From an uncultured Campylobacterales bacterium (GTDB lineage Bacteria > Campylobacterota > Campylobacteria > Campylobacterales > CAZXTK01): a stretch of 38,384 nucleotides of DNA. The notes below the pieces were generated by a model. It ran no database searches and was not told where the DNA came from. It worked only from the letters and a program-made list of their open reading frames with translations. Shown in pieces: positions 14,301 through 15,080 of the stretch. Each line of letters opens with the position of its first letter. Positions within the stretch are counted from its first letter, which is position 1. The stretch lies in NCBI GenBank assembly GCA_964643665.1, contig CAZXTK010000001.1:1-38384 (forward strand). Reading direction: 5' to 3'. A program made the translations under genes and the position numbers.

Positions 14301-15080
14301 AGATAATGATAAGCTATTTAATCCGCTCTCAATAAAAGATCGCGCCAAGGAGCCACGATTATTTCTTATTGCATCTACCAAGCCATCTACTGCTTGATAA
14401 ATTTTATCAACATTTTCTGTTTTATAGTCGGAATCTCTTATACCAATATGCACAGCAAGTGCTGATAAAACTCCCCCATGTGAAGTGATTTTGCCAGGAT
14501 TAGGATGCAAAGGATCATAAACAACAATATCATCAGTAGTAGGATTTACCCTGCCCATACCTAAAGCTTTTGCAACTTCATAATTGTTAGCTGTAATATC
14601 TGATACAGGAATAAAAGGCAAATCAAGATCATCACCACCTAAAATCTCATATGCAACATGTGTAACTGGTGATATATTAACTCGTCTATTAAAAGAATCA
14701 ACCACTCCCAAAGCAATAAGTCTTACATTATTTAAATTAACTCTTTTGCCAGTTGTTTCATCTATATAAGACTCAATATCTAATACTGCTTTTACAGAAC
14801 CACTATATGCAGGAACATGTATCGTATACTCAGATGCATCTATAAAAGGTGTGGTGCCTAAAATATCGCCCAATTTATTATAAACTGTTACAGTTCCGGT
14901 AAGAACATACCCCTTTTGCACATCACCGAATATGGTTCTAACATCTGCACCTACAATAAAAATACCATCACCAAAAGAACAACCAAGAAAAAATATAGAT
15001 GCAAAAATATTTAGACCGACAAGAGCAACTCTACGCTTGATATTTAGCATACGAGTGATTGTTTTTAGCAATATAAACAT
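1..15080 (-). CDS. Giant repetitive cell-surface lipoprotein or adhesin-like protein. It has 5,026 codons in the window and its C-terminus lies beyond position 1.
   Basis: I translated the minus strand by hand from ATG 15080..15078. It reads MFILLKTITRMLNIKRRVALVGLNIFASIFFLGCSFGDGIFIVGADVRTIFGDVQKGYVLTGTVTVYNKLGDILG... The codon phase (first base = 2 mod 3) is the same at 15080, 8330 (YLDTIKP), 6599, 5513, 2468 and 59 (MLDTLLPYV). The track lists every stop-terminated ORF of 60 aa or more but shows no minus-strand ORF in 1..15080. The frame opened at 15080 therefore has no stop in the window. The plus-strand ORFs listed here are hydrophobic, low-complexity antisense shadows. Confidence 0.9.
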   Translation of the reverse strand, partial: MFILLKTITRMLNIKRRVALVGLNIFASIFFLGCSFGDGIFIVGADVRTIFGDVQKGYVLTGTVTVYNKLGDILGTTPFIDASEYTIHVPAYSGSVKAVLDIESYIDETTGKRVNLNNVRLIALGVVDSFNRRVNISPVTHVAYEILGGDDLDLPFIPVSDITANNYEVAKALGMGRVNPTTDDIVVYDPLHPNPGKITSHGGVLSALAVHIGIRDSDYKTENVDKIYQAVDGLVDAIRNNRGSLARSFIESGLNSLSLSTADANLTFLPLGRYESKHGLLNNFVNLQPSSEGLAGRIVVKGVSGEVKVYVKHGFVGNKRLSTYTLPPGDSVLPIFYKAPPDAGMKYNVVVYVGGDPLTFSVSTEPKNIKNIVSYAATDGVKPPSLNAGDYLDAGVDPASLRDVVLSDASHYIATADAADVASALSVESVLDVIRYAQKRGKVAGKNIPTLDDYQSLNVYPKANIYPYVLPVDMVNSIILKTPANTLTKDKLRDIIYSVNRLEGAILQQESSFLGALTASDLDALGLNPKISDVNLGYFVPRLRLLPRPGITDIDSLQKAYNDFVDGLINISKYAESNTATHNATNEGLSQKDYTNLGIKTQAPIFNSFLDNYYIDGARTSTPDKVFAIADSIRDILNTTKNVTSNDLKRLGIAPNIVAITSDELSLFNSIINSLPIEDKNTYEKIKNIYKTSLNIISMATPPLHAGSVSVENWHKIRIKPEVIDVHIPYLEKLIRKANSPSSYNTKPKLNAAYSQLLIAANKIIDAAELNSADKLVVADFEDAQIDNMTAALLPKVATYLNNNPIDGNAVRTLNKLQGLVDSVVMIQNGEPLSIQNISNLGIGGIDSINKQSLFNSAINRLNANETLKNTYDKVAKIANTIANIIGVANGDIEPEDANVTGADFAQLQINPPVDALNKDAFLYALKAYDPQDANTMKKLDDISKAMNDKMLTIAQAATANISLITLSLNDYSLAGIVNVKHLALVNSFLDGDINETHIPKQKPLQDIVNIINTIPTNNNTINKRNIKLLRFIPISDTSQDGANLFSDILNDYQTQRSKDRYDKINTIFQVVAKIHKIVTGSLLPRDSNGKYALSVNELNLLELDTPITNDFVGSFLYRLSGGVGKDFDTKVELEALISDIQQSLDIIKVVAERNTATFSFPTAAIYQKAGIDLVGISPAHMESYLNNAFIQGNQTDTPLKVQIIVDHISNIIDNNKNITEDAIGKLGFGALSGINQAEKLKLINDVLNTFNDVRYKDTYQEVGKIITQVEPLMQVASGDAEPEDVHSRFNATSLDYFHFNDAITNPNTLAFLHRVKNAGLANVQTMAELNDLATNLTTIDLDLVKLSAGRSSGNVEPRLLEDIFYTSAGILHPKANLLSTYLFSPLIDRASVDDWSKIKTFASAIYLMINNQTNITDSDMSVAGIEPLDTDDKMSLFNTVLNDGGDDIQRANYTYDVVKVIRDSVDKVQNLANGANLTNATTLTADDLNKLMLDSTVAPENMPSIILLIARKGADEVNTWTKLNDIHNFLLISLDKFVKAANANDADRRLILEDYQHVGNFNITLKTVDFVNDYLNSDFIIGDYVNSSQGIFDYVHSARIVQSIQAPYIAESLSENIIHSKFGFDRPPAHFAFANDTTYEMLLFNSFLDELSESNKDTYDKLQNIFNINTQLHTIARFPVFDRNLDGLNVSSLYDIAITPTIVQENLRGYGFVIYKHRFASIVHYDNLTKFAKLQFDALAKVVAAKRANNGSPVVLDDYKDIGIEEFGNWPREIVANSTSSYLYNPNLDVPSVENADSLQAVVDQILILDNTSKSIDEAGLDVLALPFVKGDSLALFNSIVNDDKDDNRSFYQDSKVRLDFIQVATALVDSVAANLSYKDDLSGFAGVIDYDIINVLDLNPPIEHNNTNAFILMIDNTYPMSELNNKSALNNMSQTIASVLDAIQKRADGASGSARSNITEENLSSVYIGPKDPNIARSFDGYLVDTVGTLPNVNHCIEKSDVPNLDTVQDLYTIVANIYEGSAMPSDSELASLGIAAQFPSSYSTHAQHLFEDVILTQKATTKDTCQKVSNIMESSIKFTKFSLADTNINTSNISAKDFANLGITRVIDSIVVPMLQFMDTQLSSLSALQRGEKYDTVAEIQEVVDIFFGKIFLDSDWDTGYSSQDNITKLVYVNMTTSKMPRYLHFKVGVNGLSSDPQNEHFSEVGSTAISPIHFAGIRLYEGANNMSLFFAKPDGTFIDTGTLGVFYLDTIKPNITISTISGDNYINQYELSNVIINGTTSGAVDKVFNNGSFYKGVFNPNVTITGLYDYSLVAGIDQNNENWSYTITDLLSKVVNDNNKTRNFTIKFNVTDLAGNVRSVFKNVTIDVTAKIHANDITGLNTSIPNGINKADVASGPILISGDTTDVESSQNLTVDFVYQDGTLVFSKNVSLQSDGTWVTYIDFNDTAFTQDGVYTAKFTILDVAKNIATYQMDITKDTLAQINITSISVDNIVTIVDAKRATLRGVTDFIDFGATFDVFIDSDSGNPPIRLTNNAIVDANPVDNANTNGKWQMDIDITSLINNNSVSVNLTTINVSIKDSFNNPATFAITALYDPHFPSVVVNPADPTALLYINNEGKANYNITGYVENIPVEKNGTTVNLLVTQQGVPKTVSKTAVLYSVAVNTTTNQYGSGNIEFSNLDLSAFRDYTSVNAYVVFNVSLTTRGGVYTSDAQNAIKDTIAPTVNITVNDLYLSIDDNLSNINFAFSEPIKLLKNSTTPNAAIANWSLVPNTNSLNYTAQVIANSFAKQEIPNNTIMFDTSSLEDIAGNPLSQNVFSNNFIIDTVRPNATINVAPIDLRAGNLITDPNMVGEVNYTFTEAVNLSIDNVTLPNNLRITPQNALTLLTPDMKKWKGNIYTKNDTFRQAVNISLNSNNWTDLAGNKPYATTTYDYSNTFYINTKRPEVKIVIQNDTNGNEQTFIGTHENVTIYLQFTQAPITDISLGADKAFTLSDIDVSHANGTLHDLRLVQSNVGAYNGSIYAVTFATTQYIYQRVNNITLSKDTWVGWTLNRAANSSTSVNFEIDSIPPYVNITYVDEVEDSALLKQYGDGTGQYLTVGEVGYVNFSFSKEPIGFNVASDVQFDDNLTWTPIDITTNPKNLQYKITPKANTYALSRRLFVDKTSWYALHNQYPDNGSYSGNFSIDTVAPHLNITMEYDLLNLDNHTNATVTFSFNKRIGLANDASNFTESDIILDNNVTIVPNTFKRIINSTYTGAQWDRDAYSVVILANNNTEDLFSSVKVANTSWADLSTNTNDTAESASPNYVVDTVRPNVTITLSRSVLSLAQSDTNKGVITVELTEPLIGFDIEKALHIDNITLDANSVKTPRTNTYQVNFTAINGVEDLYNKIYINTSSVLDTRYNYMQDTAYSYNYEIDTILPTFDAVIVTNKTIKYGANSTVYFIFRENVTNFDESNIKTLNGDVVDVKTVNGNKYYHNWTAVFVPNVNITNDTEVTFMIDNSKTSTILDQFNNTFIPNNITMAGMWIDTFRPSLDITLAPTIIGYRSYADVNFTFNEAVKDFDANDVWFDLSHENDSWLGGADWTVVNASLYTTKFRSADELLVRGNISVLLNSTWTDLIGNTPVFKSVSNNYVVDSAFPKIVNITLDESVLNITNNATQIKIQFNKPYVIGLDTAYANGEINVSGGLLSNISFVGGAVPTPYSPFAQPPVTYNWTATFTAFDLLPNASFIDINLSKTSTIKDQTNNEFVKTQTFRLPIWIDTLPPSLNITTNDTIVIKGQEALLTFIFNEEPKDFDITDITTAFNTQFGSFSALVKSSTQPFVYTTIYTPNADTETKNHIMTFDKALWSDLILNEALVNSSVTIPVIDTKQPKLLNVSLEKTYLKVQANNKAPQVSKLYLTFSESVNNITDANIYSNNGVIDNIVVNATNSSIWVANFTPYMNISFDTSIDVIINNTNNIEDDYQNPLEPNQNIALDAVSVDTLLPMVINISLTPATDNKIIYHENETFIITFSENVTGLKAADISAINGSVVLVTSSSSMTDTWEIVYTPIDDIDYMSNVPFTIQSSNDILDMRNNTFRDTFYKNVSIEVDTLRPTLTLNVSRATLTVDNISTNISLLFSDNIDVSTLSVADFDFNQSVGAFTTPMTLVVANNTFRAEFSAFLNIENHVNILNITTNKWLDKLGNAPFVNSSTPSIAIDTLPPSITDVSVERNLIIFGENTSFNVTFSENVSNVNASDFFTPFGKVSNVVAITPRLYSAVWTPQDNISLLTTLNITILSNGSIVDKYQNKYTDNSTWVINAITTDTLKPKIDELYFVTPTNTTLYNTSNMNLLLAGTQATIKMTFSEPSRLNAFNITHGQYTLVSPGTLSTLSDTWEFTYVPYENISFEYFTTFDVSSITDERNNTIKEQEINVSIIIDTLLPTLDIDMSSLSILGENATSNVTFSFNENVSKFDININGGDDVLLFNTSDIVYNSTYAFDNKAVALTNFTDVNGSYFTATLTPKSDIVQRHQFINVLNTTWTDKYGNRASSATTSGEYLISSITPKVVNITMNTTKLIVGDSAKMNVIFNTYVRGVSLNNITMTNGTLSNLSAENIDVINGANYSNNWTFIYTPDENIPLLDNVTILVDNTSATIMDEFNVTLGQPQTQLFGNLTIDTLAPTLVSFSANQTTLLVGESANITLVFSENMSNLALNKDANIKFSENQAAISNFAPISASNTSVWYFTITPNASIDERVANVSLLANRTDAKGIALADAIFDMRGNLFIENASRIDFMFDTLAPKLNVTLNNAYPFNVVNGDYMLKFEFSEPITNFELSDINMTNANGSLIYNLTFPAPPTQFATNDMNRVYTTGYSPRSGIETNNSNISISNTAWSDRLGNRANVSFIATYDIDTKAPIIVGISLSNYVIRYGDIVTAYIEFDEDIYQNGSSNIITLSDNLSFDGATSSSVAILAKNITFNFRVDDNIASKNNITLSVLQDSIKDYYNNTYLADNSTLINVMLDTLLPYVSNIAFNDTNI
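8600..13930 (-). repeat. Array of about 20-24 degenerate helical modules of about 70-90 aa (GA/FIVAR-like) inside the giant ORF. Boundaries are approximate.
   Basis: A recurring protein motif is [ILV]-[TS]-x-x-[DE]-[LFY]-x-x-L-G-[IL], followed by L-F-N-[ST]-[IFV]-[IL]-N and an x-T-Y-[DE]-K-[IVL] helix. Examples are VTSNDLKRLGIAPNIVAITSDELSLFNSIINSLPIEDKNTYEKIKNIYKT (about 13020-13170, checked codon by codon), LTASDLDALGL, LSQKDYTNLGI, VTGADFAQLQI, ITEDAIGKLGF, ITDSDMSVAGI, LTADDLNKLML, VVLDDYKDIGI, PSDSELASLGI and ISAKDFANLGI. Confidence 0.6.
14979..15080 (-). other. Lipoprotein-type (SPase II) signal peptide and lipobox Cys34 of the giant protein. An alternative start is Met11 at 15050.
   Basis: The region has a basic n-region (KRR), a hydrophobic h-region (VALVGLNIFASIFF) and then L-G-C at residues 32-34, followed by SFGDG. 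Position -3 of the lipobox is F rather than L, so the match is imperfect. Confidence 0.6.

Follow-up and report, generated by a model that had tools for sequence, protein, structure and literature searches.

A giant gene from an uncultured Campylobacterales bacterium encodes a predicted lipid-anchored, sequon-rich fibrillar protein with an adjoining outer-membrane protein

In Gram-negative bacteria, giant fibrillar adhesins are regarded as substrates of type I secretion systems (T1SS), built from a retention module, extenders, and a beta-roll. We analyzed a 38,384-nt stretch of DNA from an uncultured Campylobacterales bacterium (GenBank assembly GCA_964643665.1, contig CAZXTK010000001.1, positions 1 to 38,384; hereafter the window), which begins with the 5' part of a giant gene whose product carries a predicted lipoprotein signal ahead of helical and Ig-like repeats. 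The window has a G+C content of ~31%, and GltX places it in the Campylobacterota, at no more than ~60% identity to any species representative. An outer-membrane protein (OMP) gene lies directly upstream of the giant gene. The features of this locus, all on the minus strand, are as follows:

1..15080, minus strand: giant gene, 5' part (5,026 stop-free codons; 3' end beyond the window)
14979..15080, minus strand: predicted lipoprotein signal peptide, residues 1-34 (motif, orthologues, family alignment, structural model)
14301..14954, minus strand: N-terminal module, ~residues 43-260 (AlphaFold2 model, Foldseek, homologues)
13533..14300, minus strand: remaining conserved N-terminal region, residues 261-516 (no family assignment)
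8751..13532, minus strand: eight tandem helical repeats, residues 517-2110 (self-BLAST, anchor motif)
3..8750, minus strand: Ig-like extender region, residues 2111-5026 (Pfam Big_12, DT.xP motif)
15081..16286, minus strand: upstream partner OMP gene, 401 aa (Pfam, AlphaFold2, Foldseek)
16287..16397, minus strand: probable operon leader (consensus match)

The giant open reading frame (ORF) starts at the ATG at 15080..15078, and its translation stays open through window position 3. Two further lineages with the gene (L003 and L005) were located by looking up the neighboring OMP. Their giant proteins are collinear with that of the window over more than 3,300 aa (67% identity in L003, 49% in L005). 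In all five contigs that carry it, the protein ends at the contig edge, after 2,225, 3,226, 3,676, 5,198, or 5,492 aa. Searching the genome contigs of 185,579 species representatives with the orthologue N-terminus returned no relative. Scans of metagenome contigs with the last 350 aa of the visible protein, and with the alignment of the N-terminal module, gave no match. A comparison of the last 363 visible residues with 5.8 billion proteins yielded two weak Big_12 matches and nothing else, and did not reach the C-terminus. The gene-bearing samples, JGI 3300021792, 3300021979, and 3300039031, SRR7168047, and SAMN09060589, are presumably hydrothermal-vent metagenomes, judging from accession and record names alone. 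No long DNA repeats that would explain the assembly breaks were found within the visible part of the gene. Genes for such adhesins are known to break in short-read assemblies (bioRxiv 10.1101/2025.09.30.679566), and the present case shows giant genes of this kind to be systematically cut in short-read metagenomes.

The N-terminus has the layout of a Sec/signal peptidase II (SPase II) signal. An earlier sequence-only reading of the window had proposed such a signal, with a basic n-region, an h-region, and a lipobox. Its sequence and position proved correct: codons 1-34 lie at 14979..15080 (minus strand), and residues 1-39 read MFILLKTITRMLNIKRRVALVGLNIFASIFFLGC|SFGDG. The three-part layout was likewise upheld by rule, by conservation, and by family membership. 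The n-region contains five Lys/Arg residues (K6, R10, K15, R16, and R17). The h-region, VALVGLNIFASIFF, comprises a 16-residue uncharged hydrophobic stretch, and the segment VALVGLNIFASIFFLG lies within the 7-22 uncharged hydrophobic residues expected of an h-region, with a mean Kyte-Doolittle value of 2.1. The lipobox F-L-G-C34 (nt 14979..14990) is followed by Ser at +2 rather than Asp, and LspA cleavage is predicted at G33|C34. We applied a PROSITE PS51257-style rule (lipobox [LVI..][ASTVI..][GAS]-Cys, Cys within residues 15-35) to the 24 proteins of the window, and the giant protein alone passed it in full. It did so from Met1 (Cys34) and also from Met11 (Cys24), the alternative start that the sequence-only reading had raised. 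Met11 is not kept in the orthologues (Thr in L003); Met1 is therefore the likelier start, and Met11 was rejected. The lipobox and the residues behind it (FLGC|SFGDG) are unchanged in three orthologues (67% and 49% overall identity) with diverged n-regions. Cys34 is one of just three Cys in the 5,026 residues, all conserved in the orthologues, and one of eight invariant columns in a 20-member family alignment (18-32% identity). A profile of the family N-terminus gave one significant PDB sequence match, to 4gd5_A, a lipoprotein precursor, within its signal peptide (MVGC|NSGG). The AlphaFold2 model is helical at residues 2-30, with a low-confidence tether at 33-42. By motif, conservation, and family membership, the N-terminus is, at the level of sequence, a real Sec/SPase II-type signal, and we regard this comparative evidence as at least as strong as SignalP or LipoP calls would be.

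The signal leads into an N-terminal module shared with much smaller proteins. Residues 35-42 are modeled as a low-confidence tether ahead of the module, which is predicted to consist of a transthyretin/CarboxypepD_reg-like beta-sandwich (47-127) and a helical bundle (138-256). The AlphaFold2 model, based on a 20-sequence alignment, has a mean predicted local distance difference test score (pLDDT) of 81, with values above 90 across most of residues 50-270. Only one PDB entry was matched by Foldseek at E ≤ 0.001, namely the non-heme domain of Geobacter PgcA (9i0d; E = 7.8e-5, probability 1.0, 156 columns, 18% identity). A HMMER scan of residues 1-1200 against 1.84 billion representatives returned 40 matches, one of them 95% identical; a search of 5.8 billion proteins with the first 1,000 residues, apparently capped at 8,000 candidates, had given none. 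About 30 of the 40 align to residues ~20-260 at their own N-terminus; where this terminus is intact, ~29 of 30 have [GAS]-Cys at residues 16-32. The other family members found are 117-1,372 aa long and bear varied cargo, for example an S8 peptidase in P0012; the RTX (repeats-in-toxin) motif is absent from the complete ones. Behind the module, residues up to ~458 still align to the homologues P0005 and P0006. Residues 1-2100 had no significant Pfam, NCBIfam, or PDB-sequence match. Because the lipobox Cys is conserved in the orthologues, in the family alignment, and in ~29 of 30 homologues, the gene is, as judged from these comparisons, a greatly expanded member of a lipoprotein family.

The body of the protein consists of two types of repeat. 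Residues 517-2110 form eight tandem helical repeats of 187-215 aa (24-33% identity, self-BLAST offsets of ~195 aa), each marked by the anchor motif LFNS...(K)DTY.K (at 667, 854, 1045, 1243, 1437, 1644, 1837, and 2052). A profile of the ~195-aa repeat found no related entry in Pfam or the PDB. This repeat is also present, many times in tandem, in very large proteins that lack a lipobox (P0007, P0010, P0015, P0029, P0030, P0034, and P0035), among which P0007 (4,949 aa) has 10 matched stretches. NCBIfam and Pfam searches of P0007, P0015, and P0034 returned no T1SS signature. The N-termini of these lipobox-free proteins resemble LapA-type retention modules by eye, a likeness that Pfam and NCBIfam did not confirm. 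The helical repeat seems to be an extender module of fibrillar adhesins so far undescribed. Apart from Cys34, the sole Cys of the 5,026 residues are C1998 and C2068 (window 8877..9089, minus strand), both in the last helical repeat, separated by 70 residues and kept in every orthologue. A disulfide between them is probable and would fit periplasmic transit. Beyond ~residue 2,100 the protein matches Pfam Big_12 (E = 1e-98, 12 stretches, all in this part). From residue 2723 onward (nt 3..6914) the Ig-like region is a regular array of ~21 Big_12-type units of 105-126 aa with DT.xP boundaries; 20 aligned units share a mean identity of 21%, and the total number of Ig-like domains is ~25 or more. 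The sequence-only reading had taken the body for that of a bacterial Ig-like (BIg) adhesin. This holds for the Big_12 array, whereas the first 2,100 residues are not BIg. An extender array of Big_12 domains like those of T1SS adhesins is thus supported by the domain matches.

Directly upstream lies the gene of the partner OMP, whose TAG stop abuts the giant-gene ATG (the gap is 17 nt in L005). This arrangement recurs in three lineages and in all five contigs, and no terminator-like site was found between the two genes. An AAGGA ribosome-binding site lies 8 nt ahead of the OMP ATG, and a promoter-like TTTATA-16-TATACT at 16397..16370. Such promoter-like sites were no commoner than in shuffled sequences, so that the leader promoter is a consensus match only. 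In the partner OMP, a signal peptide precedes two SH3-like segments that bear CxxxGWC loops (~residues 22-224, nt 15615..16223); the C-terminal part (residues 225-401, nt 15084..15614) is an 8-stranded OmpA-like barrel that ends in RYFF. Pfam gave weak matches to OMP_b-brl and SH3_3. The AlphaFold2 model of the barrel has eight main strands (pLDDT 70-87), and its best Foldseek matches are OmpA, Ail, OmpX, NspA, and OmpW (probability 1.0, template modeling (TM) score up to 0.86 on the target). An even-stranded barrel has both ends in the periplasm, and the SH3-like domains are therefore expected to be periplasmic. The family has just three members in 5.8 billion proteins; the two orthologues are 75% and 59% identical to the window protein, and the SH3-like part is almost invariant. 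We considered the partner OMP as a translocator (TpsB, Slam, or inverse autotransporter) and rejected this, as the barrel is 8-stranded and OmpA-like. We infer from the models that it may serve as a docking or anchoring partner.

The secretion route was examined from both genes and from their surroundings. The absence of ABC transporter, membrane fusion protein, and TolC genes from the 23 kb upstream, on which the sequence-only reading had relied, was borne out, as only housekeeping genes lie there. Its further statement that the protein lacks GGxGxD nonapeptides also holds: none of the form GGxGxDxUx occurs in the 5,026 residues, which contain a lone GGVGKD hexamer at residue 1122. A canonical RTX adhesin combines a retention module, extenders, and a beta-roll together with a signal for T1SS (bioRxiv 10.1101/2025.09.30.679566). 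The giant protein has the extender array (Big_12), while its N-terminus has no NCBIfam or Pfam match to a retention module. Neither the giant protein nor the OMP has a Pfam match to TpsB/Omp85, POTRA, the two-partner secretion (TPS) domain, or a fused 12-stranded barrel. The partner OMP does not have the profile of a Slam/type 11 secretion translocator, matching OMP_b-brl weakly and OmpA/Ail/OmpX by fold. No Omp85/TpsB, Slam/DUF560, T1SS, or type IX secretion system (T9SS) translocator was found near the visible side of the gene. The sequence-only reading overstated one point, in holding Sec export to be mechanistically unusual in itself for a protein above 0.5 MDa. Giant Sec-exported proteins include the TPS exoproteins FhaB and CdiA, the T9SS adhesin SprB (~670 kDa), and Gram-positive Ebh, and lipoproteins with Ig-like repeats exist in Leptospira (LigA/LigB). 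The unusual features here are the combination and the size, which exceeds 5,000 aa against 117-1,372 aa for the other family members found.

The mature giant protein is strongly enriched in N-x-S/T sequons. It contains 199 N-[^P]-[ST] motifs, compared with 88.8 ± 7.9 in residue shuffles (z = 13.9), and codon shuffles gave the same expectation. The reversed motif [ST]-x-N occurs at its expected frequency (90 vs 88.5, z = 0.2), and D-x-S/T and Q-x-S/T are not enriched. The excess lies mainly in the Ig-like region (160 vs 66 expected) and to a lesser extent in the helical repeats (37 vs 21); residues 35-500 show none. Across residues 2110-3327, the orthologues are enriched as well (L003, 60 vs 22.7 expected; L005, 64 vs 29.2). 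Of 97 sequons, 80 are kept in L003 and 49 in L005; in L003, sequon Asn residues are 84% conserved against a background of 60%. Among 20 aligned Big units, each carries 3-11 sequons, spread over 58 alignment columns, and there is no acidic preference at the -2 position. The 23 other window proteins together contain 56 sequons (49 expected), and the partner OMP contains one. The shuffles and these 23 proteins led us to reject an effect of composition or genome. A general Big_12 feature was rejected on a control of two other Big_12 proteins (z = 1.0 and 1.6). Five of the lipobox-free helical-repeat proteins have z values of -1.8 to 0.7, and a sixth, P0010, with z = 2.7, is roughly on a par with the lowest of the lipoprotein-type members; the lipoprotein-type relatives P0005, P0006, P0008, P0012, and P0033 range from 2.6 to 6.3.

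In Campylobacter jejuni, PglB uses sequons with Asp or Glu at -2. Homologues of PglB, found most often in epsilonproteobacteria, modify Sec-exported proteins in the periplasm, and several accept the minimal N-x-T (PMC4894442). Since the giant protein shows no acidic preference at -2, a relaxed oligosaccharyltransferase such as those would be needed. The simplest reading that the sequon pattern suggests is selection for dense periplasmic N-glycosylation by a PglB with relaxed specificity. As substrates of T1SS bypass the periplasm, this reading would support the Sec route. If so, the protein would be among the most sequon-dense bacterial proteins and a candidate natural substrate of relaxed PglB enzymes, of interest for glycoengineering.

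We think it likely that the gene encodes a giant lipoprotein, a fibrillar surface protein held by its lipidated N-terminus, rather than an RTX adhesin secreted by a T1SS; its exit from the cell probably follows a route other than type I secretion. In this model, the precursor would be exported by Sec, Lgt would diacylglycerylate Cys34, and LspA would cut at G33|C34, with N-acylation possible afterward. Ser rather than Asp at +2 would fit onward sorting to the outer membrane. The tether (residues 35-42) and the N-terminal module would stay at the membrane, and the helical repeats and Ig-like domains would form a stalk of more than 100 nm that holds the unseen C-terminal tip away from the cell. 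Many of the ~200 sequons would probably be N-glycosylated in the periplasm by a PglB-type oligosaccharyltransferase with relaxed -2 specificity, where the conserved Cys pair may also form its disulfide. The OmpA-like barrel, presumably co-transcribed and with its SH3-like domains facing the periplasm, would most likely dock or stabilize the anchored end. As to the crossing of the outer membrane, PgcA shows that lipobox-dependent export exists for a protein with a similar N-terminal module. Of this model, the signal motif with its conservation, the family membership, the order of domains, the coupling of the two genes, and the sequon excess rest on the present data, and lipidation, glycosylation, exposure at the surface, the part played by the OMP, and the outer-membrane passage are inferred.

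Several observations count against this model. The C-terminus of the giant gene and its downstream side, where a T1SS signal or T1SS genes could lie, are outside the window and outside all five assemblies. No outer-membrane export device was identified, and the partner barrel is too small for the passage of a polypeptide. The fold match to PgcA has modest TM-scores (0.34/0.48, the latter on the target), and the family sequence profile does not recover PgcA, so that the likeness is structural only. The giant protein does not match the stricter classic lipobox pattern L-[AS]-[GA]-C, its -3/-2 residues (F, L) being less canonical than L-[AS]. In L005, sequon Asn residues are no more conserved than the background (57% vs 58%). 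The sequon excess could in principle reflect a structural preference instead of glycosylation, and the window contains no pglB.

Some of these points would fit a genuine lipoprotein that is retained in the periplasm, at the inner membrane or in the inner leaflet of the outer membrane, where it would organize the envelope while bound by the SH3-like domains of the OMP. No outer-membrane translocator is visible near the gene, the partner barrel is only of OmpA size, and PglB-type glycosylation is also characteristic of periplasmic proteins (PMC4894442). We nevertheless consider retention unlikely. The ~25 or more Ig-like domains and eight helical repeats far exceed the width of the periplasm, and Big_12 arrays are extenders of extracellular adhesins. 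The helical repeats are common to lipobox-free proteins whose N-termini look LapA-like (by eye, with no tool result), and PgcA, the sole significant fold match of the N-terminal module, is extracellular (PMC5732950).

A T1SS-secreted adhesin of the RTX/LapA type, with its beta-roll, signal, and operon beyond the window and its N-terminus serving as an odd retention device or going unused, would account for the Big_12 architecture and for helical repeats common to large lipobox-free adhesin-like proteins. The visible sequence does end before the C-terminus, and the BapP locus combines a Sec-type signal with T1SS-like neighbors (PMC12153261). Against this stand the lipobox Cys, invariant across a family of lipoproteins both small and large with no RTX motif in its complete members, an N-terminus that is not retention-module-like, the lack of RTX nonapeptides in 5,026 residues and of T1SS genes upstream, and a sequon excess and conserved Cys pair that point to periplasmic transit. 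We give this explanation little credence. Hardly any more weight, and if anything slightly less, goes to a Sec signal that is cut by signal peptidase I or kept as a membrane anchor, with Cys34 unlipidated. The -3/-2 residues are not the textbook L-[A/S], and in one member of the family, P0025, the N-terminus is signal-like but has no Cys; yet [GAS]-Cys closes the h-region in ~29 of 30 homologues, forms an invariant column in a Cys-poor protein, and satisfies the PS51257-style rule. We thus retain the lipid-anchored fibrillar surface protein as the preferred interpretation.

The design can be compared with several described systems. Like the RTX adhesins LapA, SiiE, and MpIBP, the giant protein combines a cell-proximal N-terminal anchor, ~100-aa Ig-like extenders, and a presumed distal tip in more than 5,000 aa. 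It differs from them in having a lipoprotein signal and a PgcA-like module in place of a retention module, in lacking RTX motifs in 5,026 residues and an upstream T1SS, and in its sequon excess and Cys pair. Leptospira LigA/LigB share the lipobox anchor and tandem bacterial Ig-like domains, but these are Big_2 domains in proteins of ~1,200-1,900 aa, without helical repeats, a partner OMP, or sequons in the hundreds. In Geobacter sulfurreducens PgcA, an extracellular lipocytochrome, deletion of the lipobox residues blocks exit from the periplasm, and the released form has lost the lipodomain by cleavage (PMC10570954; PMC5732950). The PgcA lipobox is followed by the N-terminal non-heme domain that the module matches in fold, and in structure the module resembles the PgcA lipodomain. 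PgcA differs from the giant protein in being a 57-kDa triheme cytochrome from another phylum, and the resemblance does not extend to sequence. Within the same phylum, C. jejuni JlpA is a surface-exposed, N-glycosylated lipoprotein adhesin (Jin et al. 2001 and Scott et al. 2009, as listed in PMC4061916), but at 42 kDa it is without repeats, a partner OMP, or sequons in the hundreds. Pseudoalteromonas tunicata BapP has Bap-type beta-sandwich repeats and a predicted N-terminal Sec signal, and raises the same question of a non-T1SS route; it differs in its signal peptidase I signal, much smaller size, 12 repeats, N-terminal propeller, and adjoining MacAB-like T1SS genes (PMC12153261). In Slam/type 11 secretion, as here, an outer-membrane beta-barrel gene adjoins the gene of a lipoprotein partner; Slam is a 14-stranded DUF560 barrel with an N-terminal tetratricopeptide repeat domain, whereas the OMP next to the giant gene combines an 8-stranded OmpA-like barrel and SH3-like segments. 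The overall design is that of a LapA-like fiber, and the anchoring is closest to the surface lipoproteins of the Lig and JlpA types and to PgcA.

We did not find the combination described elsewhere: a lipoprotein of more than 5,000 aa, extenders common to lipobox-free giants, a dedicated OMP, and ~200 sequons. A bolder proposal, which we put forward tentatively and hold to be somewhat doubtful, is that the protein represents a new class of fiber of at least half a megadalton, densely N-glycosylated, lipid-anchored, exported in a PgcA-like, lipobox-dependent, and T1SS-independent manner, and served by an OmpA-like/SH3 partner. If this were true, LapA-like fibers could be built in a second way, different in mechanism, with extenders common to T1SS adhesins. 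A lipid-anchored version of more than 5,000 residues would show that extender modules can be deployed via Sec and lipoprotein sorting, and would raise the question of how a lipoprotein this large crosses the outer membrane. To our knowledge, no LolB or Slam equivalent has been established in the Campylobacterota, for which the protein would provide a natural test case of lipoprotein surface export.

The 23 kb upstream encode a PAS protein, a HemJ-like protein, pseudouridine synthases, RNase J, KsgA, a TilS-like protein, HisF, an RlmN-like protein, GltX, homoserine dehydrogenase, a SurA-like chaperone, a tRNA deaminase, and RNR. No Rfam family and no tRNA was detected in the whole window, including the 620 nt between the RlmN-like gene and gltX (26184..26804), which also lack any ORF of ≥80 aa. 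A small protein with an Mrr-like restriction endonuclease domain is encoded among the housekeeping genes (29140..29682, plus strand). A perfect 300-nt direct repeat (20771..21070 and 21088..21387, spacing 317 nt) covers the RNase J gene at its 5' end, the intergenic region, and ksgA at its 3' end, and yields 46-aa ORFs in duplicate; it either reflects a recent tandem duplication or is an artefact of the assembly. In L005, a 1,266-aa restriction-modification gene of the MmeI/Eco57I type (3493..7293) is inserted between the RNase J and pseudouridine synthase genes.

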